Below are positions 41,142 through 60,763 of a stretch of DNA of 64,000 nucleotides, one piece after another. Numbering within the stretch: position 1 is the stretch's first letter; the number at the start of each line of letters is the position of its first letter. Under the pieces are notes generated by a model, which saw only the letters and a list, made by a program, of their open reading frames with translations, ran no database searches and was not told the DNA's origin. The translations under genes and the position numbers were made by a program. Source of the DNA: an uncultured Gammaproteobacteria bacterium (lineage in GTDB: Bacteria; Patescibacteriota; Patescibacteriia; Veblenbacterales; UBA10138); contig CAYGDX010000003.1 of NCBI GenBank assembly GCA_964348825.1, positions 22,184-86,183 of the forward strand, read 5' to 3'.

Positions 41142-41151
41142 AAAATATAAA

Positions 41152-42294: not shown

Positions 42295-42404
42295 AAATTA
42301 AGTTCGTAGCTGTTAATCAATAGTTCGTAGAACTAATTACTACAAAAAATCGATAAATTATAAAATTATTTTCGAATTTCGATATTCGGATTTCGAATTT
42401 TTAC

Positions 42405-43655: not shown

Positions 43656-43740
43656 GGTAAAATGAAAAATAGTTAATATAATACGCTAGATGAAATTATT
43701 GTAGCAGAATACTAATCATTTATCAACCTAATTACAAATT

Positions 43741-45162
43741 ATGGATTTAGCCTCTAGACGCTTAATTTACTTGGGATTTTTTCTAATTTTTATAGTGGCC
43801 GGCAGTGCTTTGATTTTTTATTTGCAAGGTTTTCGTTATAACCCTGATAAAAAAGAGGTTGAGCAAGTGGGTGCTATTAATTTAAGTACTACGCCAAATG
43901 GTGCGACAATTTTTTTAAACGGACAAAAATTTTCACACCCCACTCCAACTACTATTAATTCACTAACCGCTGGTGAATACGAAGTAACTTTAAAAAAGGA
44001 AGAATTGCAAGTGTGGCAAAAAAAATTAACTGTTAAACCCAAACAAGTTGTTAGTGCCAGTGACGTAATACTTTGGTTGCCACCACAAATTTTCACTCCA
44101 ACAAGTGACAATAAAATATCATCTGTAAAAAATAAAACTCTAGTAGAAAATAATATAGCCCTTCATAAAATTTCCCACAACAACCAAACGCTACTTTACA
44201 CTACCACTGCCACGACTAATAATTTATGGTTACTTAATTTGCGTAGCGGCGAAAGCGATTTACTCGCACCGCCTACTGGTTTTTTAATTAATGAATTTAA
44301 TTTTTCACCTTCTAGTCAAAAAATTCTATTCCTTGGACAAATCCAAAATAAACCAATGGCCTTTATTTATTACCTTACTCAACAAAAATGGGAGAAAGCT
44401 TTAGCAATGGAAGCAGATAGTTTTGATAAATTAACTTGGGGTGAAAGTGATGATTATTTACTTAAACAAAATGATGATAATTTATGGCTAATTGATTTAG
44501 GTAGTGGTGAAGCCAAACTTATTTGGGAAGGAATAGTTAAGGATTGGAAAATGAACGATAATTTAATTTATTTACTGGTACCACAAAATGACAACTTGGT
44601 TTTAAAAATTATTAACAGTCGTAATTTAAAAAATATTAATTTAGCTGAACCATTAATTTTATCTAACAACTCCTCTTTTTTAACAACCCGTGGTGATTGG
44701 CTACCCATTACTGATGAAACAAAACATCTTCTTTATTTAATACGCTCACCTTTGAAAAATTCCTCGTCTTTAAGAAAATTAACAGCCGTGACAGCTATTG
44801 ATTGGCTTAACAATAATTCAAAAATGATAGTGGCTAATAATTATGAAATTTGGGAATACGAACCATTAGCCGATAACTTAAATCTAATTTGGCGGATAAG
44901 CACACCTTTAGCCCGCGTTCGACAATATTTAAATAAGCCCTACTTACTACTGACCTCGGGGAGTAGTTTGTGGGCTTTAGAATTTGATCGTCGCGGTGAT
45001 CAACAACGTTTCTTGCTAGCTGATTATGGTTTACCAATCACTGATTTTTTTATTAATCAAGATGGCACTTTCGCCACAGTTTTAACTGATACTAAAATTT
45101 ATCAACTGCCACTTAAGCCACAAAGGACTGAGGGTTACGACTGGCCCATAAATTTGCCCTAA
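43741..45162 (+). CDS. Membrane-anchored protein with PEGA-like domain and C-terminal beta-rich region
   Basis: N-terminal TM segment, then AINLSTTPNGATIFLNGQ...LTAGEYEVTLKK (PEGA-like). Confidence 0.4.
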   Translation: MDLASRRLIYLGFFLIFIVAGSALIFYLQGFRYNPDKKEVEQVGAINLSTTPNGATIFLNGQKFSHPTPTTINSLTAGEYEVTLKKEELQVWQKKLTVKPKQVVSASDVILWLPPQIFTPTSDNKISSVKNKTLVENNIALHKISHNNQTLLYTTTATTNNLWLLNLRSGESDLLAPPTGFLINEFNFSPSSQKILFLGQIQNKPMAFIYYLTQQKWEKALAMEADSFDKLTWGESDDYLLKQNDDNLWLIDLGSGEAKLIWEGIVKDWKMNDNLIYLLVPQNDNLVLKIINSRNLKNINLAEPLILSNNSSFLTTRGDWLPITDETKHLLYLIRSPLKNSSSLRKLTAVTAIDWLNNNSKMIVANNYEIWEYEPLADNLNLIWRISTPLARVRQYLNKPYLLLTSGSSLWALEFDRRGDQQRFLLADYGLPITDFFINQDGTFATVLTDTKIYQLPLKPQRTEGYDWPINLP

Positions 45163-45835
45163 GTAGTGATTCGAAAGTACCAGCATCAATCCACTCGCCT
45201 TCCACAATATCAACCTTAAGCTCACCGCGCTCTAAATACCAATTATGTAAATCAGTAATTTCTAGTTCGCCTCTCCCACTTGGCTTCACTTTTTTAGCTA
45301 TCTCCACAATTCTATTATCATAAATATACAAACCAGTAATCGCATAATTACTTAAATATTCCTTTGGTTTTTCTTTAATCGCCACGGCTTTTCCTTCGTC
45401 ATCAAATTTAACTACACCAAAACGCTCTGGATCAGGTACTTTTTTTGCAAAAATATGCGCCCCACTCTTAAATGATTTAATAGTAGATGAAAAATCATCT
45501 GCAAAAATATTATCACCGAGAATCATCGTAACGCTATCATCACCAATAAATTCTGAACCAATAATAAAAGCTTCGGCCAGTCCCGCTGGCTTATCTTGAA
45601 TTTCATAAGTAAATTTAGCGTTAAAATCACGACCACTCCCAAGTAAATGTAAATAATCACCAGCGTGATCTGGTGCCACAATGATTAAAATATCGCGAAT
45701 ATCAGCTTGCAATAAAGTAGCCAGCGGATACATAATCATTGGTTTGTTATAAATTGGCAATAATTGTTTAGAAGTAACACGAGTAAGTGGCCGTAGCCTA
45801 GTGCCTTCACCACCTGATAAAATAATACCTTTCAT
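45113..45835 (-). CDS. rmlA: Glucose-1-phosphate thymidylyltransferase
   Basis: MKGIILSGGEGTRLRPLT...KQLLPIY signature. Confidence 0.85.
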   Translation of the reverse strand: MKGIILSGGEGTRLRPLTRVTSKQLLPIYNKPMIMYPLATLLQADIRDILIIVAPDHAGDYLHLLGSGRDFNAKFTYEIQDKPAGLAEAFIIGSEFIGDDSVTMILGDNIFADDFSSTIKSFKSGAHIFAKKVPDPERFGVVKFDDEGKAVAIKEKPKEYLSNYAITGLYIYDNRIVEIAKKVKPSGRGELEITDLHNWYLERGELKVDIVEGEWIDAGTFESLLRANLWASRNPQSFVA

Positions 45836-46218
45836 AATACCATCAGTAATACTCCACTAAAAATTACAATAAATGAACAAATAAGTAATGTAATTACACT
45901 TTTTTGTTTATATTTATTAATTAATAAAAAAATAGAGTAAGTTAAACCTAAAATACCAATAACAGAAAAAATAATAATACTAAACTCGAAAATTATAAGT
46001 CTTATCATAAAATTCGATGATCCTAATTGTTCTGATATAATTAAAATAATAAATAAAACAACAGAAACTGCTTGCACAGCTAATAAAAATAAAACATATC
46101 TTAGTGGATTATAATTTTGGGGATTTGGTAATTTAAGAACTTCAATCATTTTGTTAAAATCAAAAAATAATAAACCTTTATACATTGACTTTTTGTAAAT
46201 ACTCACGCAAGGCCTCAC
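45832..46218 (-). CDS. Small membrane protein
   Basis: 128-aa hydrophobic ORF overlapping its neighbours by 4 and 41 nt. Confidence 0.3.
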   Translation of the reverse strand: MRPCVSIYKKSMYKGLLFFDFNKMIEVLKLPNPQNYNPLRYVLFLLAVQAVSVVLFIILIISEQLGSSNFMIRLIIFEFSIIIFSVIGILGLTYSIFLLINKYKQKSVITLLICSFIVIFSGVLLMVL

Positions 46219-47041
46219 GCCACGGCCGAAGCACTGGAAACTTGGTGTTTAAAAGTATAGCTTTTTTAGGCCGACGGGCGGGTGTTAAATAATCAGCCGA
46301 AGTAATCGGCGTTAATTTAATTTTAATATTTTTTAATTTAAATAATTCGTGCGCTATCGCGTACCAACTAGCCGCCTCTTCGTTCACTAAATGATAAATA
46401 CCCGGCTGATAATCCCCTTTTATTAAATTTTTTACCGCTTGCGCTAAATCTTTGGTGTAAGTTAACTTACCAAATTGATCATTTACTACTTTAACCTCAG
46501 CTTGCTCACTGCCTAATTTTAACATAGTGTCAATAAAATTTAAACCTCTAGGCTTGCCTAACTGCAAAGCGTGACCATACAACCACGAAGTGCGAATTAA
46601 ATACCCATTATTATATTCTGTTACAAATTTTTCACCGTCTAATTTTGACTGTCCATAAATATTAATTGGACTGGGCACAGAATTTTCATCATATCCAATT
46701 TCATCCTCACCGCTAAAAACGTGTTCAGTTGAAAAATGAACAAGCTTAGCTTGAATTTTGCCCGCGGCCTGCACTAAATATCCAACCGCTTCGGCATTTA
46801 TTTTAAAAGCCATTTCCTTATTATTTTCCGCGCCATCAACATCAGTAAACCCTGTAGCATTAATAATAATATCGGGTTGAAGTGATTCAATTTTAATTTG
46901 AACTAATTTCTCGGAAGTAACATCAAGCTCTTCCTTATCCCATAAATATAATTCAGCACTGGAAGCTAAAGCATGCGCCAAATCTGTACCCAGCATACCA
47001 TGACAACCTAAAATTAATATTTTTTTATTATCCTGTATCAT
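46178..47041 (-). CDS. rmlD: dTDP-4-dehydrorhamnose reductase
   Basis: ILILGCHGMLG Rossmann motif, YGQSK catalytic motif, 287 aa. Confidence 0.8.
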   Translation of the reverse strand: MIQDNKKILILGCHGMLGTDLAHALASSAELYLWDKEELDVTSEKLVQIKIESLQPDIIINATGFTDVDGAENNKEMAFKINAEAVGYLVQAAGKIQAKLVHFSTEHVFSGEDEIGYDENSVPSPINIYGQSKLDGEKFVTEYNNGYLIRTSWLYGHALQLGKPRGLNFIDTMLKLGSEQAEVKVVNDQFGKLTYTKDLAQAVKNLIKGDYQPGIYHLVNEEAASWYAIAHELFKLKNIKIKLTPITSADYLTPARRPKKAILLNTKFPVLRPWREALREYLQKVNV

Positions 47042-47044
47042 AAA

Positions 47045-47437
47045 CTACTTGTTATTTACTTTTCTAAATTCCTCATAATCTGAAATATAGTCCTGCCTAG
47101 TTGAATCATAATCTGTTGATGATAAGGCCACCACTACCGTACCTAGCGCAAACGACTTAAAATGATGCCAAACATAAGCTCCAACATAAACCGCTTCGCC
47201 TTGATTTAAATTAACATCACGTAAACCCGAACCATCATCAATTACCATCACAGCCGAACCGCGCGCCACAAAAAAGCACTCCTCTTCAACTTTATGACAA
47301 TGCGAACCTGATGGTTTAACTCCGTCTACAATTACATAAACACGCTTAATTGTAAAACCTAAATCTTTCCCCGCTTCTATTAAAGAAAAACGATCGTCGG
47401 TATGGATTGGGAGTTTGAATTGTTTAAACTTTATCAT
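47045..47437 (-). CDS. WxcM/FdtA-like cupin sugar 3,4-ketoisomerase
   Basis: RVYVIVDGVKPSGSHCHKVEEECFFVARGSAVMVIDDG...YVGAYVWHHF matches the FdtA/WxcM C-terminal domain. Confidence 0.55.
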   Translation of the reverse strand: MIKFKQFKLPIHTDDRFSLIEAGKDLGFTIKRVYVIVDGVKPSGSHCHKVEEECFFVARGSAVMVIDDGSGLRDVNLNQGEAVYVGAYVWHHFKSFALGTVVVALSSTDYDSTRQDYISDYEEFRKVNNK

Positions 47438-47441
47438 AAAA

Positions 47442-47918
47442 TTAAAATAATTTTTCTTTACCCAAACCCACCCAATCTACTAATTCAGTAAACCTAACGT
47501 AAAAACCAAATGGATCAATTACTCTAAAATCTTTTTTACCCCAACGTTTAAGCGTTAATGGCTGAGCAATTAGATTGGGTTGTAATTTATCCTTAACCAA
47601 ACCCCAAAGTTCATCAACATTGGAGACTGGGATAGTTATTTCAACCGCATAACCGCGTGGTGTAGTCGCTGGGAAGTCACAAAAATGAGAATGCTGCGAG
47701 ACTTTCTCTTTGTCTCCATAAAAATTTATATGCGTTTCACCTAGAATATCTTCTCGTTTTAATATAAGATATCCCAAGTCACTTCCCCCACCTGATGTTG
47801 GATCGTAACTTAACTCACTAAATCCAAAAATTGAATAAAAAGAGCGTACTATAGAAAAATCTGGCACATGGAGTTCTAAAACTAAATTGTTGGGGACAAT
47901 ATTCATAACCTTAAACAT
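47442..47918 (-). CDS. VOC (glyoxalase/bleomycin-resistance) family protein
   Basis: ELHVPDFSIVRSFYSIFGF and the paired beta-alpha-beta-beta-beta module layout. Confidence 0.45.
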   Translation of the reverse strand: MFKVMNIVPNNLVLELHVPDFSIVRSFYSIFGFSELSYDPTSGGGSDLGYLILKREDILGETHINFYGDKEKVSQHSHFCDFPATTPRGYAVEITIPVSNVDELWGLVKDKLQPNLIAQPLTLKRWGKKDFRVIDPFGFYVRFTELVDWVGLGKEKLF

Positions 47919-47920
47919 TA

Positions 47921-48925
47921 TTAATTAAGATGTGGATTTAATTCTGATTTCCTTTTTTCTAATTTCTCTACCCACTCTTTATTATTTACATACCATTCTA
48001 CCGTTTCCTTAATCGCCTTAGTAAAATCATACTGCGGAACCCAACCTAATTCTTGTTTAATTTTAGTGGCATCAATCGCGTAGCGCCGGTCGTGGCCCGG
48101 GCGATCGGCTACAAAAGTAAGTAAGCTTTCGGGCTTACCCAATTCACTTAAAATAATCTTAGCAATTTCTAAATTAGATTTTTCATTATCTGCCCCAATA
48201 TTATACACTTCTCCCGCTACTCCTTTGTGGAGCATTAGGTCAATCGCCTCACAATGATCAAGCACATAAATCCAATCACGTACGTTTTTACCATCGCCAT
48301 AAAGTGGTAATGATTCACCACGCAGTGATTTAAAAATAAAAAATGGAATCAACTTTTCCGGAAATTGATACGGGCCATAATTATTAGAGCAGTGAGATAC
48401 TACCACAGGTGTGCTATAAGTTTTAAAAGCCGCCCGACACAAAAGGTCGCCACCTGCTTTAGCCGCCGCATATGGCGCATTGGGTGTAAATGGCGTATTT
48501 TCAGTAAACTGTGTATTATCTTCAAGCTCTAAACTACCATACACTTCATCGGTTGAAATCTGCACCATTTTTTTGACTTCATATTTCCGTACCGCATCAA
48601 GCAAAGTTTGCACACCTAAAGTATTGGTCAGCACAAAATCGCGATTACCACCGTGGATGCTTCTATCCACATGGGTTTCCGCCGCAAAATTAACTACCGC
48701 ATCAAAACTTTGCGCTAGCACCTCGTCAACTTTAGTTTGATCAGCAATATCACCTTGAATAAAACTATAATGCGGATTTTTTACTAAATCAGCTAAATTA
48801 TCTAAATTACCAGCGTAAGTTAGTTTATCATAATTAACAATTTGATAATCAGGATATTTTTGTAAAATATGGCGGATAAAATTGGAGCCAATAAACCCTG
48901 CACCACCGGTAACTAATATTTTCAT
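47921..48925 (-). CDS. rmlB: dTDP-glucose 4,6-dehydratase
   Basis: MKILVTGGAGFIGSNFIRH, YAAAKAGGD (YxxxK), 334 aa. Confidence 0.9.
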   Translation of the reverse strand: MKILVTGGAGFIGSNFIRHILQKYPDYQIVNYDKLTYAGNLDNLADLVKNPHYSFIQGDIADQTKVDEVLAQSFDAVVNFAAETHVDRSIHGGNRDFVLTNTLGVQTLLDAVRKYEVKKMVQISTDEVYGSLELEDNTQFTENTPFTPNAPYAAAKAGGDLLCRAAFKTYSTPVVVSHCSNNYGPYQFPEKLIPFFIFKSLRGESLPLYGDGKNVRDWIYVLDHCEAIDLMLHKGVAGEVYNIGADNEKSNLEIAKIILSELGKPESLLTFVADRPGHDRRYAIDATKIKQELGWVPQYDFTKAIKETVEWYVNNKEWVEKLEKRKSELNPHLN

Positions 48926-49034
48926 AATTAAAATATAATTCTAAATAAACATCATTATTTGATTAAATCATTTTACTACTGGGTACAGGGCGCTGCCCCG
49001 CACCACCAGTGATTAAAAGTTTAATAATAAAAAA

Positions 49035-49382
49035 TTATAACTTATTATACTTCGTATGCTTACCATAAGATTTGGCTATTGGATATTTAGCATCATCTTT
49101 AACTATCTTTTTCTGCACCGCCTTAGCTAAATCTATATTTAAACTATCACAAAACAATAATAAATATTTCAAAACATCGGCTATCTCATCACTTATATCT
49201 GCTTTAGAATTTTTAACATACTTATCAATTTCTTTTTTATTTAACCATTGAAAATGCTCTAACACCTCCCCCGCTTCTAATAATAAGGATAAGGCTAAAT
49301 CTTTTGGATTGTGAAATTGTTTCCAATTCCGCTCGTCCCGAAATTTAACAACTTGTTTGGTTAATTTTTGAATATCAGACAT
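49035..49382 (-). CDS. MazG-like nucleotide pyrophosphohydrolase
   Basis: FRDERNWKQFHNPKDLALSLLLEAGEVLEHFQW signature. Confidence 0.7.
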   Translation of the reverse strand: MSDIQKLTKQVVKFRDERNWKQFHNPKDLALSLLLEAGEVLEHFQWLNKKEIDKYVKNSKADISDEIADVLKYLLLFCDSLNIDLAKAVQKKIVKDDAKYPIAKSYGKHTKYNKL

Positions 49383-49401
49383 AAAATAAAATCTAGTTAA
49401 T

Positions 49402-49689
49402 TTATTTACTATCCTCTTGATCTAATTTTTCCCAATCAATCACTAATTCATCTACCTTTGGCGGGTTTTTACGCAACTCAACCAATTCTTTGGCACCGTT
49501 AGCCCATTTAATCAAACCATCTAAGTACAACACGTCTTCTGATTTCAACTCTTCTTTATATTTTTGTTTAACTTCTTCAGTCAACTTTAAAACTGCTTCA
49601 AAGTTATTAACCCTTAATAATCTGTCAGCTTCTAACTGCCAATTATCTAACCCTATTTCTTCAGGATTATGCCGCAATTCTTGTTTCAT
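49402..49689 (-). CDS. Hypothetical protein (95 aa)
   Basis: ORF with no recognised family. Confidence 0.3.
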   Translation of the reverse strand: MKQELRHNPEEIGLDNWQLEADRLLRVNNFEAVLKLTEEVKQKYKEELKSEDVLYLDGLIKWANGAKELVELRKNPPKVDELVIDWEKLDQEDSK

Positions 49690-50153
49690 AAAAAGTTAAT
49701 TAGTATATAAACAACTATAATTATCATCCTCCAAAATCAGAAAAAAGGCAAGAAAAAACCGCTATTTGATTAAAGCGGAAATATCAGAAAAAAATAAAGC
49801 GTCAGGTGTAAGCAAAAAGTTAGAAAGGATAAGAAAGACCTTTTTACTAAACACAACTGACGCTGTAACAAAATTTATTGAAAGAACGATTTTAAAATAA
49901 GGGGCTAGCGTTTAGGCAAGTAATTAATTGCTGTAAAAATCCGCATGAGTCGGCCTGCACAATGGGGGATTACCCTAATTAATTACTCTAAAATAAACCT
50001 AAATACTAGCCTTGCCCAAATAGACGTTTTATGCCGATAACCTACCAAGGTTCGGAGTCCATAATATATATGACCTAGTAGGGTAAAATAATCTTAGCAC
50101 CATTAAAAAAATAGTCAAGCGTTTAAAACTTGACTACTTTATTAACAAAAAAA

Positions 50154-50567
50154 TTAAATCGCCATTAAGCTTCTTATTCTTTCAGCGACTTGCTCGCGCT
50201 CGCCTGCCTTATAATCTTTCCCTTGCCACGAACCAAGACCGTCGCCAGTTTGCCGTGGCATAATGTGAACATGGGCGTGAAAGACAGTTTGCCCCGCGAC
50301 AACGCCGCAATTTACCCCGATATTAAACCCTTCTACACTAACCGCTTGAATTACAAATGGTGAAATTTTATGTACCACTGAAAATAATTTACCGACTTCA
50401 TCTTCTGACATTGCAATTAAATCAGTATAGTGTTTTTTGGGAATTACTAATACATGCCCCGGATTCACTGGCTTAATATTTAAAAATGCTAAAAATTCAT
50501 CATCTTCATAAACCTTAGACGACGGCAACTCCCCGGCTACAATTTTACAAAAAATACAATCGGACAT
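50154..50567 (-). CDS. HIT-family hydrolase (second copy)
   Basis: CIFCKI N-terminus and HAHVHIMP histidine triad. Confidence 0.8.
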   Translation of the reverse strand: MSDCIFCKIVAGELPSSKVYEDDEFLAFLNIKPVNPGHVLVIPKKHYTDLIAMSEDEVGKLFSVVHKISPFVIQAVSVEGFNIGVNCGVVAGQTVFHAHVHIMPRQTGDGLGSWQGKDYKAGEREQVAERIRSLMAI

Positions 50568-50572
50568 AAAAA

Positions 50573-51670
50573 TTATAATTTTTCTCCTAAAACTTCCCGA
50601 GTAAACAAATTAATACCTAACACTTCTTTAAATTCGTTAATATCTGTAATCATAACACCATGAGGTAGTATACCAGTTAACAATGGTTTATTTTTTATAC
50701 GCTCCATCATTTCTGCTGTTGGCTGCCAATCAAAACTCATGGCATCAAAAATAACTTTAAGTTGGTAACATTCTTGAAACATTACTTTTAATTTCAACTC
50801 CTCAAAACTTAACTGCCGAATTTCTTGATATAAAACTTCTGCCTTGTGAGACAAATCATCAATCAAATTATCAATTTCATCTAAAGACAAAATTTTACCA
50901 TCAGCTACTACGGCATACTTACGCATCCCAAGAACTGGGCTACCAGATTTAACGACTGTGTGACAACCTACAAACGAAATTTCCCAATCGACGTCCTGAT
51001 AAAAACTATAAATATAAATTTCTTTATACTGGGCAAGAAATTTATCGGGCCATAACTCTTTTGGCTGCATGTTAGGAAACCACCGAATCAATAAACTGTA
51101 TTCCATTGAATCGATGGTACTATTATAAGGCCCAAAAGCCTCCCAACCTAAATCAGTTACTAAATCATTATACAATCCATGAACCAAAGAACCAGCCGCG
51201 GTGATAAGTTGTCCTATTTTTCTTGCTTCCACTGGCGTAGTGGTAGAAAATAAAACATTAGAAGATATTTCAGCTAACTCTTCTTCGGAATTAACTTGAT
51301 TTTTACTTATCGCAAATGGATCAGACGGACATGCTTCCAACAACATTCGCCCTAGAAAATTTGCCACTAATTTAATATTGTCTAAATTTTTAATCGTCAA
51401 ACCTTTATATGCTGGCATTAACTTTTGTAAAATTGCCCGCATATTGGACGGTGGTGGGAGTAAACGACGCAATTCAGAGTATGTTTTTTGATCTAGCTTA
51501 TTGTCGCGTATCACTTGGGCAAAACGATCAAGCCAAAGATCATACCAAATTGGGAAAAAATGAAAAAAATCAATGGGCTGAAAACCTTCTATGACATTAC
51601 CAGCAAACAATTTAAATACTCCTTGTGTAAATTGATTAATCCAATTCATAAATCTCACCAGTTGAACCAT
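50573..51670 (-). CDS. Hypothetical protein, third gene of the operon built around the PEP-utilizers swivel domain
   Basis: 365 aa; overlaps the upstream gene, suggesting translational coupling. No family recognised. Confidence 0.4.
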   Translation of the reverse strand: MVQLVRFMNWINQFTQGVFKLFAGNVIEGFQPIDFFHFFPIWYDLWLDRFAQVIRDNKLDQKTYSELRRLLPPPSNMRAILQKLMPAYKGLTIKNLDNIKLVANFLGRMLLEACPSDPFAISKNQVNSEEELAEISSNVLFSTTTPVEARKIGQLITAAGSLVHGLYNDLVTDLGWEAFGPYNSTIDSMEYSLLIRWFPNMQPKELWPDKFLAQYKEIYIYSFYQDVDWEISFVGCHTVVKSGSPVLGMRKYAVVADGKILSLDEIDNLIDDLSHKAEVLYQEIRQLSFEELKLKVMFQECYQLKVIFDAMSFDWQPTAEMMERIKNKPLLTGILPHGVMITDINEFKEVLGINLFTREVLGEKL

Positions 51671-51965
51671 TAATTTTTAACTTCATACCAGATTTAATTT
51701 TTAAAGTAGCTTCTTTAGTATTTACCACACATGGAATACCCATTTCACGGCTTAAAATAGCTGGATGTGAAGTAATACCACCAATATCAGTCACAATCGC
51801 TCCCGCCCGTATCATAACTTGTACCATGGTTGGATCGGTTAAAGTGGTTACTAAAATTTCACCCTCTTTAAATAAACTAAAATCACCACCCGGTAGTATT
51901 ACGCGAGCTACACCTTCGGCCAAACCACCACTCGCGGCCATTCCTTTTAATAAAATATTACCCAT
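51636..51965 (-). CDS. Stand-alone PEP-utilising enzyme mobile (swivel, phosphohistidine) domain protein
   Basis: GGLAEGVARVI...VTDIGGITSHPAILSREMGIPCVV has the conserved phospho-His motif; 109 aa. Confidence 0.7.
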   Translation of the reverse strand: MGNILLKGMAASGGLAEGVARVILPGGDFSLFKEGEILVTTLTDPTMVQVMIRAGAIVTDIGGITSHPAILSREMGIPCVVNTKEATLKIKSGMKLKINGSTGEIYELD

Positions 51966-52941
51966 AGAAGCTTACATTACCTTTTTGATGCAAAGTTTTA
52001 TCTTTCCTCTCCTGCGTGATACCTTCAGCGATTAATTGCTTTAATACTTCATCATCAACTTTATATTCCTGCCCCCTTATTTTTACACTCACAGTTGGCT
52101 CACCCTTCTCGTTAGTAGATACTTCACTTTCCCACTCATCCAAAATTTTCAAACTACCGCCAACCTCAGCTAATTTTGTGATACGAGCGTTATCTGATTT
52201 ACGAATCAATACGCCTGAAGCTAAAAACGCTTCGGTAACAGTTTTATGAGTATTATGAAAAATATCAACTTCTGAGCCAGCGTTCAAACGCTCCGCCATT
52301 AAACCATGTCGACGACCAAATAACACTGCAAAATTAGCCGCCTGCATACGTGGTGGAAAATTTTTCGCCATTGTACTTTCTGGATTATCTATCCATTCTA
52401 GTATCACTGGCTCTTCGGCCGTTTCAGCAATTTCTTCTTGTTGATCAGGCGTTAATTTACCAAATTCAACATTAGGATATTTACCACTTTCAATACCTTG
52501 CCTTAATAACTCCTTTTTATTATCACCCCATTTTTGTTCATATTCTTTCAAAAACTCTGGGGTACCAGAAGGCGCCACCAACGCTTTATCTATTCGTACT
52601 TTTTCTCGAACCACCACATCAGGATTTGATTCAGCATAACCGCGCATTAAGGCGTCAAACGTTTCTTGAGTTCTTTCGGAAGTGCTTTTATATCCTTTAG
52701 CGCCATACTTTCCGGCCTCATAAGTTGCCCCTCTCTCTTCCGCTCGCACCGCACCACCCGGAGAGATATTAGACAAAGATATTCCGGTTTTTTCAGAATT
52801 AAAAACTTCGCCACTAGATTTTTGACTATGTCGTACATAATGATTATGTATTGTAACATTTTTACCACGATTTTCTCGCAACTCTTTCTTTTCTTTATCA
52901 GAAAGAGTTTCCAATAACGATGGTCTATTAAATTCAGACAT
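51958..52941 (-). CDS. Hypothetical protein, first gene of the swivel-domain operon
   Basis: 327 aa; its stop overlaps the swivel-gene start by 8 nt. No family recognised. Confidence 0.4.
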   Translation of the reverse strand: MSEFNRPSLLETLSDKEKKELRENRGKNVTIHNHYVRHSQKSSGEVFNSEKTGISLSNISPGGAVRAEERGATYEAGKYGAKGYKSTSERTQETFDALMRGYAESNPDVVVREKVRIDKALVAPSGTPEFLKEYEQKWGDNKKELLRQGIESGKYPNVEFGKLTPDQQEEIAETAEEPVILEWIDNPESTMAKNFPPRMQAANFAVLFGRRHGLMAERLNAGSEVDIFHNTHKTVTEAFLASGVLIRKSDNARITKLAEVGGSLKILDEWESEVSTNEKGEPTVSVKIRGQEYKVDDEVLKQLIAEGITQERKDKTLHQKGNVSFYG

Positions 52942-52968
52942 AAATTAAATAATTAATGTTTTAAAAAC

Positions 52969-53448
52969 CTAATACAACATCAAATCCTGCCTTACGCGGG
53001 CGATGAATGCTTGACCGGCTTCTTTATCTTCCTCAGCCGGCGCCCAAGTGGGAAATTTTTTATGCGTACGCGGATCCCACGGGCCTTCTACCACTTCGTA
53101 AAGCGCAGTATCGGGTGCAAGCGCTACTGTCATATGCCAAGTAGTAGGCGATACTTCCACTCCCCACGGACTTTTCCCCGCTTCCAAAACCACATGATTT
53201 GAAATACGACCATCCTCCGCAAATTCTACCAGTGCGGCTTTACCTTGCAAACAAATAAAAATTTCTACTTTATCGGGACTTTCATGCTTATGTGGACGCA
53301 AGTAAGAATCAGGCTCAATTACGCTAAACAAGCGATGAATTTTGTCATCGTTGTTATCATGAAAAGTATATAAACTACGACGACGCGTAGAATTTTGTGC
53401 CATAGTGGCGACTTCACTTAGTAATTTTTGGTCGATTAGACGTAACAT
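52969..53448 (-). CDS. Cupin-fold protein
   Basis: HKHESPDKVEIFICLQGKAALVEF...WHMTVA resembles a cupin metal-binding motif. Confidence 0.45.
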   Translation of the reverse strand: MLRLIDQKLLSEVATMAQNSTRRRSLYTFHDNNDDKIHRLFSVIEPDSYLRPHKHESPDKVEIFICLQGKAALVEFAEDGRISNHVVLEAGKSPWGVEVSPTTWHMTVALAPDTALYEVVEGPWDPRTHKKFPTWAPAEEDKEAGQAFIARVRQDLMLY

Positions 53449-53555
53449 TTTAACAAATGTAAAAATTAAAAATCAAAATGAAAAATGACAAATCAAAATT
53501 TAAAATTTTTTAAAATTATCACTTATCTTTATATTATCCTAAATTAGATAAAAAA

Positions 53556-55154
53556 TCAAGGCGTATTTACTTGTAAAAATTTATACAAACTATGCTCGAG
53601 CAAATTGTCTTTTTCTAATTTTAATTCCAAATCAGCTATTTTTAATTTATTTTGCCACTCGACTAATTGTACTTCACTAAAAGTTAGATTAAATAAATAA
53701 ACTGGAATACCGGCTTTTACTAATCTGCCCACAGCTTGATATTCACGAATACTTGCAAAAGACACAATCACCTGTCGCTCTGGCCAAAAGAATTTATCAG
53801 TACGTCCCGGCGCAACTATAACACTATCTGACGGTGTTATTCCTTGCACTACACGACTAACATTTTCAAATTGCCATAAACGTTGTTGTAAAAACACCAA
53901 CCCTTCATCTTTTCCCCATAAAACCAAATTGGCTGACAGAGTTATAAAAATAATTATTATGCTTGAAACAATTATTCGACCATATTTTTTTAACCACAAA
54001 TCAGCCAAATAAAAACTAGCTGGCCATAATCCTAAAATATATAATGGCAAAAAATATCGCACATATGAACTACCAAGAGTAACAGCAGTTGGATCGGGAT
54101 TATCACTAAACCACCAACTACCGTAAACAACCAACAACCAAGCACTAACAACTAGCGACATTAAAAATAATCCCTTGACTTCTTGGCTTAATGTTTGCCA
54201 TTTTTTAATTACGTAACCCGTGCCAACTAAAACTAAAATAAACCACCACCAACTAAACTGCACTATGTAATGCAAAAAAATTTGCCACATCACGCGCGGA
54301 TGAAAACCAAAAGGCAATATCACTTGGCTAATAAATTTAGTGATTGATTCACCACCTGCAGCGGGTAAAGTTATTCCACCACTGTAGCCCACGATAAATA
54401 ATTGTCCGTAAGTTAAATAATTTACCACTAGTACTGGTGCAATACCTAAAATTAATCCTAAAACAAGCCAAGCAATATAGCGCCAAATAATTTGCTTGTA
54501 ACAATACGCTGACCAAACACCAAAAGCCGTGGCCAGCCAAAAAACTTCTGAGCTACGAACTGAAATAGCTAATCCTAAAATTAAACCAGTTAACAAATAC
54601 CAAATTATTTTTTGTTTTTTAAGCGCTTGATACCATAACCACATTCCAACTAAAACTAAATCAAAAAATAAAGCATTGTGAAAAAAACTACGTGAATGAT
54701 AATACCAATAAGCTGGCGTTACGCTCGTCAAAATTATAATCAACCAAGCAGCACGACGATTAATTAAATCACGTCCCAACAAATAAAGCGCACCTAATCC
54801 AAAAATAGCAAAAATTGGTGTAATAAACGGTAACACTGAAACGCTAAATACCCAGCCAAAAATGGCTAATATTAGCGGAAATCCAATGAAACCTGCCAGT
54901 ACTATATCATTATCTAAAATATGAACCCAACGTGGCCGAACAATTGTTTCGCCCGCAATTTTATTAAGTGGTGCTGGCGCGCGTAAATTCTCACCGTTTG
55001 CGAGTCGCTCACTAAAAAATGAATTTACTACTTCATCGGGAGTATTAAAACGATTATGCGGCGCTAGCCAAATATAAGCTGAATATATAAAAGTAATGGC
55101 TAATATAAAAATTATCAACCATTTTTCTTTTTTAGCTATTTCTAAACTTAACAT
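53556..55154 (-). CDS. GT-C fold glycosyltransferase (ArnT/PMT-like, GT39/GT83-type)
   Basis: 532 aa, about 12 TM helices; the first-loop region is typical of polyprenyl-phosphate-sugar-dependent transferases. Confidence 0.6.
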   Translation of the reverse strand: MLSLEIAKKEKWLIIFILAITFIYSAYIWLAPHNRFNTPDEVVNSFFSERLANGENLRAPAPLNKIAGETIVRPRWVHILDNDIVLAGFIGFPLILAIFGWVFSVSVLPFITPIFAIFGLGALYLLGRDLINRRAAWLIIILTSVTPAYWYYHSRSFFHNALFFDLVLVGMWLWYQALKKQKIIWYLLTGLILGLAISVRSSEVFWLATAFGVWSAYCYKQIIWRYIAWLVLGLILGIAPVLVVNYLTYGQLFIVGYSGGITLPAAGGESITKFISQVILPFGFHPRVMWQIFLHYIVQFSWWWFILVLVGTGYVIKKWQTLSQEVKGLFLMSLVVSAWLLVVYGSWWFSDNPDPTAVTLGSSYVRYFLPLYILGLWPASFYLADLWLKKYGRIIVSSIIIIFITLSANLVLWGKDEGLVFLQQRLWQFENVSRVVQGITPSDSVIVAPGRTDKFFWPERQVIVSFASIREYQAVGRLVKAGIPVYLFNLTFSEVQLVEWQNKLKIADLELKLEKDNLLEHSLYKFLQVNTP

Positions 55155-55202
55155 ATAAACTTATAATAAATACCATATCCTAAATCAAAATAGTAAAATC
55201 TC

Positions 55203-55240
55203 CATCACAAACATTCCGCGACCGCTGACACTTTGTGATG
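55203..55240. repeat. Nested palindrome catcacaa..gcgaccgctg..ttgtgatg
   Basis: Same family as 28795 and 30307; between the GT-C start and the DoxX stop. Confidence 0.5.
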
Positions 55241-55260
55241 TGAAATATATTAGACAACTC

Positions 55261-55725
55261 TTACTCTACACTCGCATTTTTATTTAATTTTTTATCCCAC
55301 AACTTCGTTAAATATAATTCAGCGCGAAAGTTATCTAACTCTAAACTCCACAAAGTTAAAGCCGCGGTTAATAGGGCCACATTTTTCCAAACCAACGAAA
55401 AATCAAGAATAATAAAAAATATTATAAAAGCCAATACGGTGAGAAGTGCTGCAATTTCAGTAGCCAAACCTAAAATAAGCATACTACCTAAAATAATTTC
55501 ACCGATTGATTGATAAAAAACAAATAACTCTGGCTCCATTGGCAGCCAAGTGAACGACGACACTAAACTCACGGCTTCGCTGGCATTGGTGCAAACACCT
55601 AAGGCATTTGAATCGGCGCCAAATTTACTAAGCCCTGACCAAAGAAAAATAAAACCAAGGGATAAACGGAGAATGAGCGGGAGGTAAGGTTTGAGTGTTT
55701 GACGAATTTTAATTGTGCTAATCAT
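55261..55725 (-). CDS. DoxX-family membrane protein
   Basis: LILRLSLGFIFLWSGLSKF signature, 154 aa. Confidence 0.6.
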   Translation of the reverse strand: MISTIKIRQTLKPYLPLILRLSLGFIFLWSGLSKFGADSNALGVCTNASEAVSLVSSFTWLPMEPELFVFYQSIGEIILGSMLILGLATEIAALLTVLAFIIFFIILDFSLVWKNVALLTAALTLWSLELDNFRAELYLTKLWDKKLNKNASVE

Positions 55726-55757
55726 ACTAAGTGTTATGAATTAAGAATTAGTTTTAT

Positions 55758-55946
55758 TTTGTTACTTCTTTAATAGAAGTAACCATGAATCGCAGGCCAC
55801 GGTCTCCAAGTTTGAACAGTGCTCGTCAAACGAGCTGGTCAGGCCTATGCACAGCGACCACAAACACGGCCTGACCGGACGCTCGTTTGATTCCCTGCCT
55901 ACCGGCAGGCAGGCGCTCTGTACAAACTTTCCGACATGGCCGCACA
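55758..55946 (+). ncRNA. Copy 2 of the four-copy GC-rich structured repeat. Terminal hairpin gttacttc-tttaata-gaagtaac at 55760-55782.
   Basis: Core ...gtctccaagtttgaacagtgctcgtcaaacgagctggtcaggcctatgc..ggcctgaccggacgctcgtttgattccctgcctaccggcaggcaggcgctctgtacaaactttccgacatggccgcac. The last ~70 nt are identical to copy 3. Confidence 0.6.
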
Positions 55947-56020
55947 ACTTTTGGGAATTGGGATTTTTAAAAATTAGTTATTAGTTGTTAGTGATTTTCC
56001 CCGCCACAGCGGGGCAAGCT

Positions 56021-56106
56021 GGATTCCCGCCGGAGTTTACCCCGCACCAAGATGCGGGGCGGGAATGACCCCACTTCGCCAAGGCTACGTGGGGCGAGCA
56101 ATTCTT
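56021..56106. repeat. GC-rich element homologous (reverse complement) to 14148-14279; contains a ggattcccgcc...ggcgggaatgac hairpin
   Basis: See the 14148 feature. Confidence 0.55.
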
Positions 56107-56437
56107 ACTCTTTCTTGACCTCTTTAATTGCTACTTCCCGTACGACTTTAGTTAACTGCCGATCAAATTTTTCCAATCGCACAAAAATTTTAAACAATAA
56201 ATAAAAAACTAACAGAATTGACAAATAAATTATTAAATCACTCCCCCGCCCCACACCAACTACATCGGCCATATAGGAAGCAATTTTTGGTTCCAAACCA
56301 ACCACCCCAATTACTAGCCATAATAAAAGCCATTCCCAAAATTCTGAACGTTTTATTTCTTGGGCGCGCAGGCGGCTAAATAATCGCCACCAAACGATTA
56401 ACACGACTAACAAGATAATAAACTGGATTAAAGACAT
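56105..56437 (-). CDS. DUF2304-like small membrane protein
   Basis: 110 aa, 3 TM helices, directly downstream of a GT2 polyprenyl-phosphate sugar synthase, the usual DUF2304 context. Confidence 0.5.
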   Translation of the reverse strand: MSLIQFIILLVVLIVWWRLFSRLRAQEIKRSEFWEWLLLWLVIGVVGLEPKIASYMADVVGVGRGSDLIIYLSILLVFYLLFKIFVRLEKFDRQLTKVVREVAIKEVKKE

Positions 56438-56586
56438 AAAAAATTAAAATGTAAATATAAAAATGGAAAATGACAGATTAAAATTTAAAATGAATTGTAA
56501 CCTATTTAATATCTAAGGAAAAATTATTATCTAATTATTTTTTAATTTTTCATTGTCATTTTTATTTTTGATTTTTTATTTTTAAA

Positions 56587-57282
56587 TTATTTAAACATTC
56601 TCCCTACCACCAAATCTTTTACAATCTTCGCCGCTGGCCATTTGCCTTGTTTACTACCCTTCAAACTACTTTCAGTATAGCGCACTGTAACTGGTACTTC
56701 CACCCAAGTAATATTACAACGTTTTATCTCATCAATTACTTCTGAACTAAAAGCCATTAAATCCTGTCTAAAATTAAATTTTTGCCAAGCGGAACTGGTG
56801 AAGGCACGAAAACCATTGTGAGCATCGGTTAATTTAATACCTGAAAAAATCCAAGTAAAAATAATAGCTAGTTTTAAAGTTAGATAGCGAAGTTTTGGCA
56901 TATCAATCACTTTTCCCAAAAAACGCGACCCTAAAGCTACGCTTGGTACACCAAGTTGTAAAGCGCCAACTAATCGTGAAATATCATTGGCTTCAAATTG
57001 ACCATCAGCATCAAAATGAATTATGATATCGGCGCCGCGAGATACGGCATAATCTGAACCAGTAACAAGTGCCGCCCCATAACCGCGATTTACTAAATGC
57101 TGCAAAACAATCGCGCCCGCGGAAGTGGCAAGGTTAGCTGTATCATCATCTGAACCATCATCAACCACTACCACTTTATCAACTATCTTTTTCACTTTTA
57201 TAACCACGTCTGCAATATTTTTAGCTTCATTTTTAGCTGGAATAATTACCCACGTATTCATTTTCCTTGCTCCTTCCACCAT
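56587..57282 (-). CDS. GT2 polyprenyl-phosphate glycosyltransferase (DPM1/GtrB-like)
   Basis: VIIPAKNEAKNI...VVVVDDGSDDDT and catalytic D-x-D region. Confidence 0.8.
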   Translation of the reverse strand: MVEGARKMNTWVIIPAKNEAKNIADVVIKVKKIVDKVVVVDDGSDDDTANLATSAGAIVLQHLVNRGYGAALVTGSDYAVSRGADIIIHFDADGQFEANDISRLVGALQLGVPSVALGSRFLGKVIDMPKLRYLTLKLAIIFTWIFSGIKLTDAHNGFRAFTSSAWQKFNFRQDLMAFSSEVIDEIKRCNITWVEVPVTVRYTESSLKGSKQGKWPAAKIVKDLVVGRMFK

Positions 57283-58163
57283 TTAAAAGTTAAACGTAGT
57301 CCTTCTATAAGCGGCACCTGAGGCGACCAATTTAATTGAGCTTGTGCTTTATCTGAATTAAACACTGAAATTAGCGCTTCACCCGAATCAAGCGCAATGT
57401 AATTTACTTTTGGCACTTCACCTATAACTTGCCCAATAGCGAGCGCTAATTCTCGGAAACTAATACCCTCACCAGTTGATAAATTATAAACTCCTTGACC
57501 AAATTGTAAAGCTTGAAATATTCCTTGTGCCGCATCAGTTACATACAAATAATCACGCACTGATTCGCCTTGACCTGGTAGAAGTAATGGTTCTGACTCC
57601 AGTGCCGCTTTAACAAAGCGCGGCATAGTGCCAGCTAATTGACGTGGGCCAAATATGCGAGTCAAACGCGTAATAACCTGCGGCAGACCATAATTTTCCG
57701 CATAATAATTTAAATAACCCTCGGCCGTTACCCGTGATAAAGCATAAAATGAAGTTGGCTCAATATCATCATTTTCTTTAATTGGTTTGTCACTCGACTT
57801 ATAAACTGCCAAGCTTGAAACATATAAAAATTTTTTTATTTTTAAATCTTTTAAGGCCGATAGTAAATTAACTGTGCCAACCACAGCTACGCTTAAATCA
57901 TGACTTGGATTATTATTCGCAGCTGAAACAACATTCACGCCAGCTAACTGACAAACATAATGTGGTGAAATTTTTTTTATTAAGGCGGATAGTTTAGGTG
58001 AACAGATATCAAGTAAATGAAATTTAGCCGCCTTTGGTACAAATACTTTGCGTCCAAAAGATAAGTCATCTATAACATGAACTTCAAAACCAGCCCGCAA
58101 AGCTATTTCAGCTAAATGCGAACCAACAAAACCAGCGCCGCCAACAATTAGTACTTTAAACAT
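57258..58163 (-). CDS. NAD-dependent epimerase/dehydratase (SDR)
   Basis: VLIVGGAGFVGSHL Rossmann motif, YALSR (YxxxK variant). Confidence 0.7.
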   Translation of the reverse strand: MFKVLIVGGAGFVGSHLAEIALRAGFEVHVIDDLSFGRKVFVPKAAKFHLLDICSPKLSALIKKISPHYVCQLAGVNVVSAANNNPSHDLSVAVVGTVNLLSALKDLKIKKFLYVSSLAVYKSSDKPIKENDDIEPTSFYALSRVTAEGYLNYYAENYGLPQVITRLTRIFGPRQLAGTMPRFVKAALESEPLLLPGQGESVRDYLYVTDAAQGIFQALQFGQGVYNLSTGEGISFRELALAIGQVIGEVPKVNYIALDSGEALISVFNSDKAQAQLNWSPQVPLIEGLRLTFKWWKEQGK

Positions 58164-58181
58164 AGTTAATATAATACTTTT

Positions 58182-58368
58182 TTGTTACTTCTTTAATAGA
58201 AGTAACCAAGAATCGCGGCCTTCGTCTCCAAGTTTGAACAGTGCTCGTCAAACAATCTGGTCAGGCCTATGCCGAGCGACCACATACACGCCCAAGCCGG
58301 ACGCTCGTTTGATTCCCTGCCTACCGGCAGGCAGGCGCTCTGTACAAACTTTCCGACATGGCCGCACG
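58182..58368 (+). ncRNA. Copy 3 of the four-copy GC-rich structured repeat. Terminal hairpin at 58184-58206.
   Basis: ttgttacttctttaatagaagtaacca..gtctccaagtttgaacagtgctcgtcaaacaatctggtcaggcctatgc...ggcgctctgtacaaactttccgacatggccgcac. Confidence 0.6.
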
Positions 58369-58423
58369 ACTTTCTATGATTTATTTTTCTAATTTCGAAT
58401 TTAGTGCTTCGGATTTGGAATTT

Positions 58424-59563
58424 TTATTTTATATACTTCTTCAACTCTTTCACCATATCCAACTTCTCCCAAGTAAACCCCTCACCCATGCGGCCAAAAT
58501 GACCATAAGTAGCGGTGGCTTGATAAATCGGCCGACGTAATTTTAAATGTTCAATTATCTCATACGGTGTCAGTGGAAAATGATTTTCAATAATTTTTAT
58601 TATTTTGTCATCTGGTAACGCACCGGTACCAAAAGTATTTACTGCCAAACTAACAGGCACAGGTTCACCAATCGCATAAGCTAGTTGTACTTCGCACTCG
58701 CGAGCTATTCCTGCCGCTACTAAATTTTTCGTGATATAACGGGCCGCGTACGAAGCTGAACGATCAACTTTGGAAGCATCTTTACCCGAAAAACAGCCAC
58801 CACCATGATGCGCCCGACCGCCATAAGTATCTACGATTATTTTGCGACCTGTCAGGCCAGTATCGGCCTCCGGCCCGCCAATTACAAATCGACCGGTAGC
58901 ATTAATAAAAACTTTGGTTTTATTATCAAATAGTAACCCGCAAATTTTTTTTATTACTTCTTTTTCTAATTCCGCTCGCAATTTAACTAAAGATACATTT
59001 GGATCATGCTGGGCCGCTAGTACCACACTAAAAATTCTTTTTGGTTTGCCACTTTCATATTCCACCGCCACCTGACTTTTGCCATCGGGCCTGAGACCTT
59101 TCACAATCCCCTTCTTTCTTACCTCAGCTAAACGCATAGCTAACTTATGCGCCAACATAATTGGTAAAGGCATAAATTCCGGAGTTTCAAGGCAAGCATA
59201 ACCAAACATCAATCCTTGATCACCCGCACCAATATTTTTTGCTGAACGCACTACGCCACGTTTAATATCCACCGACTGTTCGTGTAGCGCCACCAGCACA
59301 CCAGCGTCAGAAGCATCAATTCCAAAATCAGGATTGGTATAACCAATCTCACTTAAAACTTGCCGCGCAATTTTTTGCACATTCACATAACCGCGCGTTG
59401 ACACTTCACCGCCCACCAACATCACACCAGAAGTAACATATGTTTCAATGCCAGCACGAGTAAAGGGATCTTGGCGTAATAATTCATCTAAAATTGCGTC
59501 GGATACTTGATCACAAATTTTATCGGGATGACCCTCGGTAACTGATTCTGAAGTATAAATCAT
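58424..59563 (-). CDS. metK: S-adenosylmethionine synthetase
   Basis: [33 protein letters not shown] and DTYGG motifs. Confidence 0.95.
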
Positions 59564-59565
59564 AT

Positions 59566-59650
59566 CATTAAAACACTAGAACATTAAAACATTAGAACAT
59601 TATTAATAAAAATCTTGTTTCTATGATCTAGCGATCTAATGTTCTAATGT
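59566..59650. promoter_or_regulatory. Palindromic 9-mer array element beginning 3 nt upstream of the metK start codon
   Basis: cattaaaacactagaacattaaaacattagaacat-tattaataaaaatcttgtttctatg-atctagcgatctaatgttctaatg. Confidence 0.55.
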
Positions 59651-59658
59651 AAATATTA

Positions 59659-60678
59659 TTAAGCCGACAACTTCGGCCCCAGCACATACTCATGGGCATT
59701 GCCATAATTAATCGTAGAGCGTAAACCATCTTCTAGCTTAGTTAAAGGAAACCAACCTAATTGCTCTTTTGCTAAAGTAATATCGGGCACACCCTGCCTT
59801 GCTAAATAAGGCAAAGCCGCGGCCTCTTCAAAAACAACCCTAGCACTAGTTAAATCAATTATCATCTGCGCAATATCTTTCATTTTGTAGGGTTCTGGCG
59901 AGCCAAGATTAAATACACCAGATGATGTATGATCCATTAATTTTAACAAGCCATCTACCATATCGCTAACATAACAATAAGTAGAAATTTCCTCGGGTGA
60001 ACCATAAATAGTAAGTGGTTGATTAGTTAAAGCATGAGCAATAAAATCAGGAATCATACGACCATCTTGTAGTTTCATACGCGGACCGAAAGTATTAAAA
60101 ATCCGAGCAATACGAAAATCGACTGAGCGATAATTACCATAATTAACTACCAAACTTTCGGCAAAACGTTTACCTTCATTATAACAACTGCGCGGTCCCA
60201 CTGGATCAATTGAACCCCAATCTGATTCTTTAAATTTTTGATTCTGAACTGGCTCACCATAAATAGAAGCGGACGAAGCGTGTAGAAATCTGGCCTTATA
60301 TTTCACGGCTAAATCCAAAAGATTACGCGTGCCCTGCGAATTAGTAAGCAATGTTTCAATTGGCAAATGATGATATTCTTTAGGACTGGTCGGACAAGCT
60401 AAATTATAAATTTGTTGCAAGCCCTGATACTTAACTTTAAATACTTCAAGTTCAGGCAGAGCTTCTAAATCAATTGGTTCAATTAAATCGTGCTTAATAA
60501 ATTTAAAATTTTGATTTTGCATTAACAAATCAATATTTTCTTCCTGACCGGTAATAAAATTGTCTATACAAATTACATTATTTTTTTCAAGCAAAGCGTC
60601 ACATAAATGCGAACCAATAAAGCCAGCTCCACCCGCTACCAGCACATTACTGCGATCTAAAATTTTTGTATAAGACAT
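59659..60678 (-). CDS. UDP-glucuronate decarboxylase (UDP-xylose synthase)-like SDR
   Basis: VLVAGGAGFIGSHLCDALL..VICIDNFITG, YNLACPTSP, YNEGKR (YxxxK). Confidence 0.7.
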   Translation of the reverse strand: MSYTKILDRSNVLVAGGAGFIGSHLCDALLEKNNVICIDNFITGQEENIDLLMQNQNFKFIKHDLIEPIDLEALPELEVFKVKYQGLQQIYNLACPTSPKEYHHLPIETLLTNSQGTRNLLDLAVKYKARFLHASSASIYGEPVQNQKFKESDWGSIDPVGPRSCYNEGKRFAESLVVNYGNYRSVDFRIARIFNTFGPRMKLQDGRMIPDFIAHALTNQPLTIYGSPEEISTYCYVSDMVDGLLKLMDHTSSGVFNLGSPEPYKMKDIAQMIIDLTSARVVFEEAAALPYLARQGVPDITLAKEQLGWFPLTKLEDGLRSTINYGNAHEYVLGPKLSA

Positions 60679-60763
60679 AATTAAAATAGATATGAATAAG
60701 CTCTTTTATTATAACAAAAAAAGGCCAAATTTGAAACCGGCCAAAATTTTCCCCCTAATTTCA

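Follow-up and report, generated by a model that had tools for sequence, protein, structure and literature searches.

A three-gene cassette centred on a free phosphohistidine swivel carrier as a candidate part of a multi-component dikinase in Patescibacteria

Dikinases that pass phosphate through a mobile histidine-bearing swivel domain are already known, and so are split versions of two components. The two-component dikinases HpeHI, CreHI and PpsAB (phenylphosphate synthase) work with a separate ATP-grasp subunit (PMC12167813). Here we describe a cassette of three overlapping genes, A, B and C, at positions 50573..52941 of a 64,000-nucleotide stretch of patescibacterial DNA (contig CAYGDX010000003.1; the whole stretch is called the window below). 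On balance, we judge it probable that the cassette supplies all but the ATP-grasp subunit of a four-subunit dikinase of the phosphoenolpyruvate (PEP) synthase/rifampin phosphotransferase (RPH) type found in Patescibacteria and some DPANN archaea, and that the ATP-grasp subunit acts in trans. Both groups have tiny genomes; their metabolism is poorly known, and most gene families conserved in them lack an assigned function.

A sequence-only reading of this DNA had described three overlapping genes centred on a mobile phosphohistidine domain encoded by itself, and both observations proved correct. All three genes lie on the minus strand, and the positions needed below are as follows.

Gene A: 51958..52941, minus strand, 327 aa, predicted histidine-phosphatase-superfamily protein.
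Gene B: 51636..51965, minus strand, 109 aa, predicted stand-alone PEP-utilizers swivel (phosphohistidine carrier) domain.
Gene C: 50573..51670, minus strand, 365 aa as the longest open reading frame (ORF), probably 358 aa from Met8 at 51649.
Overlap of the A stop and the B start: 51958..51965, minus strand, 8 nt with the common letters ATGGGTAA.
Overlap of the B stop and the C Met8 start: 51636..51649, minus strand, 14 nt, ATGAATTGGATTAA, with GGTGAG just upstream.
His38 codon of A: 52828..52830, minus strand, predicted nucleophile of the RH(G) motif (YVRHSQK), from the invariance of R37 and H38.
His67 codon of B: 51765..51767, minus strand, predicted phosphoryl carrier in the GGITSH motif, from reading the sequence.

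By profile comparison, B is a complete free-standing PEP-utilizers swivel domain whose predicted catalytic T-S-H motif is intact. The PF00391 profile covers it end to end (model 1-72 of 72, E 2.6e-24) with a score of 85.1 bits against a curated cut-off of 23.1, and in NCBIfam B aligns best with the PEP synthase swivel segment (E 1.8e-33). The T-S-H triad is kept in 28 of 29 swivel copies from related loci, the remaining copy reading T-A-H. Homologue searches returned 111 relatives of C (43-63% identity) and 57 of A; taken together, these range from 30 to 68% identity and are near full length, so both flanking genes are real and not chance ORFs. The 35-nt overlap between B and C previously given is that of the longest C ORF, but C most likely starts at Met8, because Met8 and Trp10 form the conserved N-terminus of the family alignment, residues 1-6 of the structural model have a predicted local distance difference test score (pLDDT) below 50, and the resulting 14-nt overlap recurs identically in six more loci (L003, L011, L012, L014, L020 and L021). 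The cassette has the base composition of its surroundings, and no convincing terminator was found within it.

The association of swivel and C was surveyed in 28 genome loci and 29 metagenome loci, the former from Gracilibacteria, Uhrbacteria, Magasanikbacteria, Doudnabacteria, Daviesbacteria, other Patescibacteria and two Micrarchaeota. A swivel adjoins C or is fused to it in each of the 26 genome loci whose upstream DNA is available and in the metagenome loci that are informative, so that the pair is invariant in about 55 loci. At least 13 cluster representatives join the two in one protein of about 470 aa with the swivel ahead of C, and one representative has the reverse order. Tandem swivel-C pairs (L012, L038 and L039) and tandem C-C fusions (P0169, P0172 and L063) are also present. 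An A-type gene adjoins the pair in about half of the loci, lying upstream of it, between its members (L024) or downstream (L015, L052 and L060); elsewhere it is replaced by another family or absent. The sequence-only reading had proposed a three-gene unit, and the three genes do co-occur widely, but the invariant core is two genes, swivel and C, and not three.

When a second type of candidate phosphatase is counted with A, a histidine-phosphatase-like gene is found in about 21 of 27 genome loci, more often than any other third partner. This second type, cluster 2 (about 232 aa; 4860..5558 of L012 and relatives, alignment A3), stands upstream of the swivel instead of A in about nine genome loci. 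Its members carry an RRH motif and match phosphoglycerate mutase (PGM) below threshold (E 0.1-0.8), which is only suggestive, and they are not upheld here as proven histidine phosphatases. In most of them an Asn apparently replaces the second catalytic His (LNFEQ, compared with THFE in L019 and L002), and judging from these residues they could be altered or inactive phosphatase-fold proteins. A further domain family, N (about 330 aa, N-terminal; alignment A4), is fused ahead of swivel-C, or straight onto C, in P0245, P0246, P0213, P0229 and P0242, and is encoded alone beside a swivel gene at 2722..3714 of L061. It has no match in Pfam or NCBIfam and is unrelated to A, C and cluster 2. The N-terminal parts of these five proteins had been considered as A-type phosphatases, which would have made triple fusions; that idea was dropped in favour of the separate family.

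The candidate fourth subunit is seen in the closest relatives of the cassette. Four of the five closest relatives of the window C with usable context (59-61% identity) carry a PPDK_N gene, encoding the ATP-grasp domain, beside the cassette. In L001 the order is A-swivel-C-PPDK_N with 2-nt spacing and separate frames (PPDK_N at 2643..3581), and in L067 it is swivel-C-PPDK_N. The closed genome CP064975.1 (L068) has A-swivel-C followed directly by a 1521-aa ORF with PPDK_N first and then two swivel modules; additional swivel modules and an RH-motif protein lie further on. L069 has PPDK_N, a 308-aa unannotated gene at the position of A, swivel and C. The fifth close relative, L070, is a 6.5-kb contig on which no PPDK_N is present. 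A similar set is found in L035, in the order RH-motif protein, C, swivel, PPDK_N. In one protein, P0177, C is joined to a PPDK_N ATP-grasp domain (E 2e-97); as this is a singleton on one 4.8-kb contig, we describe the two as adjacent or fused and not as a proven fusion. A code-25 read-through fusion of C and PPDK_N in L001 was also considered and rejected, since the C frame closes with TAA and PPDK_N is read in a different frame. In L068, the region 11077..18872 holds two giant unbroken ORFs (1521 and 1128 aa) that together comprise PPDK_N and five swivel modules. The source gene calls span only parts of them; real megaproteins and wrongly called gene arrays are both possible.

The L001 PPDK_N, used as query, returned 7,995 matches, the top 120 of which are all 304-333 aa long with 64-100% identity, and every source-named entry among those 120 is from Patescibacteria. 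The family is thus very large and, at 64-87% identity among top matches, unusually well conserved. These stand-alone proteins of about 312 aa contain neither a swivel nor a TIM barrel, and therefore need a swivel from another protein. In the sampled neighbourhoods (L029-L037), the PPDK_N gene is usually the last of its operon. Such operons encode one or more proteins of 341-507 aa that end in a swivel and, nearly always, a single RH-motif phosphatase-fold protein (270-330 aa), irrespective of how many swivel modules there are. In L032 PPDK_N stands beside a HAD hydrolase only, with no swivel gene nearby, so the ATP-grasp can be encoded away from its partners. Three TrmB genes flank the PPDK_N operon of L029.

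Neither protein flanking the swivel had been recognised from the sequence alone, and for C this stands. It has no match in Pfam, NCBIfam, PHROGs, PADLOC or PDB sequences, whether queried singly or through a profile of 61 sequences, and every source annotates its homologues as hypothetical. The AlphaFold2 (AF2) model (pLDDT 93.6, predicted template modelling (TM) score 0.92) consists of eight N-terminal helices leading to a sheet of six to seven strands and then to C-terminal helices. Foldseek found no match to it in the PDB (best E 0.42, TM <0.25) or in BFVD (best E 0.08). At 50% identity the family comprises 371 representatives, as counted by an exhaustive HMMER search of 1.84 billion proteins. 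D117, D169, G180, Y182, W207, Y224, W315 and P317 are conserved in a set of 122 divergent C domains, and E290 and K293 are kept at 80-90% (residue numbers in this family-wide alignment are shifted by +7 to the window ORF). H164, C236 and H237 are invariant in the close subfamily only, and the mean column identity of the close-family alignment is 58%. The conserved Asp, Tyr, Trp, Lys and Glu residues include no nucleotide-binding or phosphate-loop motif; taken as a set, they suggest a pocket for a ligand, equipped with a catalytic acid or base.

An assignment of C as an ATP-grasp or TIM-barrel domain was rejected from its secondary structure and the lack of any match, and the earlier observation that neither flanking protein carries a PPDK_N or TIM-barrel signature was borne out. 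Kinship with the N domain or with RPH-like substrate domains was likewise rejected, at hhalign probabilities below 1% (0.05% against the RPH-like substrate domain of L031). No RPH chain is among the Foldseek top 50 for C, and that search matched its fold to no ATP- or PEP-binding domain.

Protein A, in contrast, can be placed: sequence relatives and the structural model indicate that it is a divergent histidine-phosphatase-fold enzyme with an intact predicted catalytic core. A itself has no match above the curated models of Pfam, NCBIfam, PHROGs or PADLOC. Against PF00300 the window protein gives nothing at E <= 1, and single-sequence and profile searches of those four databases and of PDB sequences return PGM matches only, all of them sub-threshold. 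We assign the fold because of its PF00300 relatives, its invariant residues, its AF2 model and its Foldseek matches. The family (n=57) includes PF00300 carriers and the source name 'broad specificity phosphatase PhoE', and 25 of 55 aligned members reach PF00300 one by one at E <= 0.01 (best 1.8e-7). R37, H38, R90 and H232 are invariant in the 55 aligned sequences. The AF2 model (pLDDT 91.8) places R37-H38 where the first beta strand (E30-37) ends, the usual position of the catalytic RH in the histidine phosphatase superfamily, and R90 and H232, assigned by their position in the fold, putatively complete the phosphate pocket. The motif reads RHS and not RHG, the Gly being Ser or Thr in the family.

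Foldseek of A against the PDB gave 211 matches at E <= 0.001, the top 50 of which are nearly all histidine acid phosphatases, PGM-type enzymes, TIGAR, RosC and mycobacterial GpgP-type hydrolases. The best match has E 1.4e-8 at probability 1.00 (range 1e-8 to 1e-6), yet TM is only 0.45-0.59. The model also has a helical insertion of about 100 aa (residues ~121-225, with four helices at about residues 128-218) that holds an invariant acidic helix, LTPDQQEEIAETAEEP, with L163, D166, Q168, E173 and E177. A GRRHG segment of A that had been singled out in the sequence-only reading is not conserved in the family and was rejected as the catalytic motif; the meaningful motif is R37-H38 in YVRHSQK.

By analogy with RPH (PMC4844700) and with HpeHI, CreHI and PpsAB (PMC12167813), a mechanism can be proposed for the complete system. 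A separate PPDK_N protein of about 312 aa, presumably encoded elsewhere in the genome of the window, would load His67 of B from ATP, releasing AMP and inorganic phosphate and leaving phosphohistidine. Charged B would then dock on C, and the phosphate would pass from B to a substrate held by C, which would thus stand in for the PEP/pyruvate TIM barrel or the rifampin-binding domain. A specificity role for C fits, because swivel-C pairs occur as paralogues, C-C fusions occur in tandem and some conserved residues are specific to a subfamily. As part of the same unit, A may strip phosphate from the carrier B, as SixA does from NPr, or may act on the product or a later intermediate. The former is favoured by the presence of one RH-motif gene per PPDK_N operon irrespective of swivel-module number, and the latter by the cap-like insertion and the sequence divergence between operon types.

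Several observations count against this scheme. The whole 64-kb window contains no PPDK_N ORF, and about 90% of C loci have no PPDK_N within 6-8 kb. An operon that encodes both a kinase and a phosphatase would set up a futile cycle, should the two share a target compound. C is unlike every known acceptor domain in the hhalign comparisons with N and RPH-like domains and in the Foldseek top 50, and the case that it provides the acceptor site is argued only from position and analogy. In P0245 and P0246, moreover, the swivel sits between N and C, neither of which is an ATP-grasp domain, and therefore C need not be the sole substrate domain. The central idea of a split dikinase-like phosphotransfer system, already raised by the sequence-only reading, nevertheless holds up, while specifics of that reading need revision. 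Co-occurrence, swivel-C fusions and the PPDK_N genes in the operons of relatives support it, and the flanking proteins were not confidently matched to families unrelated to phosphotransfer; but neither of them resembles the nucleotide-binding partner, which would be a fourth gene absent from the window.

A more far-reaching form of the four-subunit proposal, which we hold only tentatively and consider rather doubtful, likens the system to the phosphotransferase system (PTS). In Patescibacteria and some DPANN archaea, one highly conserved general ATP-grasp would charge swivel carriers, whether free or borne on a module, that serve interchangeable specificity modules, of which C would be a structurally new class, and a dedicated histidine-phosphatase-fold enzyme would act on the phospho- or pyrophosphohistidine of the carrier, for example in a step from pyrophosphohistidine to phosphohistidine or in a reset. 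Were this so, dikinase chemistry would gain a new protein fold and a partial reaction not known before. It is unlikely, we think, that the cassette is instead a self-contained relay, the possibility closest to the sequence-only reading, in which C is a new phosphoryl donor that draws on PEP, ATP, polyphosphate or another high-energy compound to charge His67, and B passes the phosphate to His38 of A and from there to water or an acceptor. Such a relay would account well for swivel and C being the sole invariant pair, for a histidine-phosphatase-like gene being far commoner than PPDK_N, for the lack of a nearby PPDK_N in the window and most other loci, for the two Micrarchaeota loci that hold only swivel, C and a TrmB regulator, and for the N-swivel-C proteins, which have no ATP-grasp; the fold of A, too, itself works via phosphohistidine. 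The properties of C count against it: C shows no donor-binding signature, having neither a nucleotide-binding nor a phosphate-loop motif, and Foldseek matched it to no ATP- or PEP-binding fold. The closest relatives, besides, keep PPDK_N inside the operon, and the stand-alone PPDK_N family needs external swivel partners.

The action of SixA, a member of the histidine phosphatase superfamily that dephosphorylates NPr and Ndk (PMC7948535, PMC6282199, PMC12934123), would also suit a regulatory phosphorelay, with B as an HPr/NPr-like carrier, A as its phosphatase and C as a sensor or effector that reads the phosphorylation of B. The single RH-motif gene per PPDK_N operon fits this too, as do TrmB-family helix-turn-helix regulators (PF01978) that are divergent from the cassette in eight loci, one of them a Micrarchaeota metagenome-assembled genome (MAG) (for example L016, 3925..4680, minus strand, and L027). 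We nevertheless regard a regulatory function as improbable: A has a large helical cap that SixA lacks, C is conserved like an enzyme and exists in multiple paralogous copies, each with its own swivel, and Pfam and NCBIfam searches revealed neither a DNA-binding nor a signalling domain in any of the three proteins. Patescibacterial genomes are gene-dense and overlaps are common in them, so that tight packing of neighbours with no shared function might explain the arrangement, and the loss or replacement of the A-type gene in about half of the loci would agree with this. We give that explanation hardly any credence. Swivel-C fusions in at least 13 clusters exclude mere packing. The pair is always adjacent across several lineages of Patescibacteria and in two archaeal MAGs; the 14-nt overlap is conserved, and the A-type gene is found upstream of, between or downstream of the pair according to lineage. 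A defence system or mobile element was rejected as well, as there is no PADLOC match, the composition is like that of the surroundings and the neighbours are housekeeping genes. The four-subunit dikinase with its ATP-grasp in trans thus remains the reading that we prefer.

Envelope-glycan genes flank the cassette (46178..48925, 52969..55154 and 56105..57282, minus strand), and encode RmlD, an FdtA/WxcM-like cupin, an RmlB-type 4,6-dehydratase, a WbuC cupin, a PMT_2 membrane glycosyltransferase, a DUF2304 protein and a GT2 protein. In the Magasanikbacteria MAG of L015, homologues of RmlD, the FdtA/WxcM-like cupin and the RmlB-type dehydratase lie just upstream of the cassette. Because dTDP-sugar, WbuC, PMT_2 and GT2 genes lie near the cassette and in L015, and TrmB regulators accompany such loci, there are weak hints that the substrate might be a sugar or an envelope glycan. 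Immediately after C, 5 nt past its end, begins a HIT-family gene (50154..50567, minus strand; PF01230, E 1.9e-28). HIT proteins are nucleotide phosphoramidases or transferases and also use a catalytic His. The gene occupies the slot where the closest relatives have PPDK_N, an arrangement shared only with L026, a 99%-identical relative. A MazG-like nucleotide pyrophosphohydrolase (49035..49382, minus strand) lies about 1.2 kb downstream of the cassette, and a phosphoribosyltransferase is among the upstream neighbours elsewhere (L013); a weak link to nucleotide salvage is possible from these two neighbours. Between 47 and 57 kb the minus strand carries nearly all ORFs, and GC skew is negative in 32 of 32 two-kb bins (window 1..64000), which indicates a strong strand bias over the whole window.

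The proposal links four families into one testable unit, namely an abundant stand-alone ATP-grasp, a free swivel, divergent histidine phosphatases, and C, whose family makes up 371 clusters at 50% identity. Confirmation would extend dikinases from one- and two-component enzymes to four-component systems with a diffusible phosphohistidine carrier, add a new substrate-domain fold, expose a recurrent unexplained pairing of kinase and phosphatase, and provide a handle on the metabolites that Patescibacteria and DPANN symbionts phosphorylate. In the searchable literature we found no description of a free-standing swivel carrier, of a C family without recognisable fold, of a near-obligatory histidine-phosphatase-fold partner, of a restriction to ultra-small symbionts or of a very large stand-alone PPDK_N family. 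The system could be more novel still if C or A performs an unprecedented step.

Among described systems, the relatives of the window share with HpeHI, CreHI and PpsAB a separate PPDK_N-type polypeptide, a swivel His that would serve a second substrate site, and an organisation in one operon. In those dikinases, however, the swivel is fused to the C-terminus of a substrate domain resembling the rifampin-binding domain, to which C has no detectable relation, whereas here it is free (109 aa) or N-terminal to C. An ATP-grasp gene, which in their case lies in the same operon, is absent from the 64-kb window here, and while the cassette has A, no phosphatase-fold partner is described for them in PMC12167813. 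The proposed three-station logic of ATP-grasp, swivel His and acceptor domain is that of RPH and of PEP synthase and pyruvate phosphate dikinase (PPDK). Those enzymes split ATP into AMP and inorganic phosphate, moving the beta-phosphate through the His, and are single polypeptides whose third domain is rifampin-binding or a PEP/pyruvate TIM barrel (PEP-utilizers_C), neither of which C matches, and the domain order also differs from that of RPH (PMC4844700).

The PTS (Enzyme I/HPr) together with SixA offers a different parallel, a small free-standing phosphohistidine protein linking a common charging component to specific modules, with a histidine-phosphatase-superfamily enzyme that can drain the carrier. 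Unlike HPr, B is a swivel of the Enzyme I type, and there is no PEP-binding domain and there are no EII components; unlike SixA, a minimal core of about 160 aa with no cap that acts on the phosphohistidine of a protein, A has 327 aa, twice that size, and a predicted helical cap. With the His_Phos_1 superfamily (PhoE, cofactor-dependent PGM, CobC, RosC and GpgP), A shares its predicted fold and the invariant Arg-His...Arg...His, and it departs from those members in scoring below every curated model, in its RHS in place of RHG, in its helical insertion of about 100 aa and in its genetic tie to dikinase parts.

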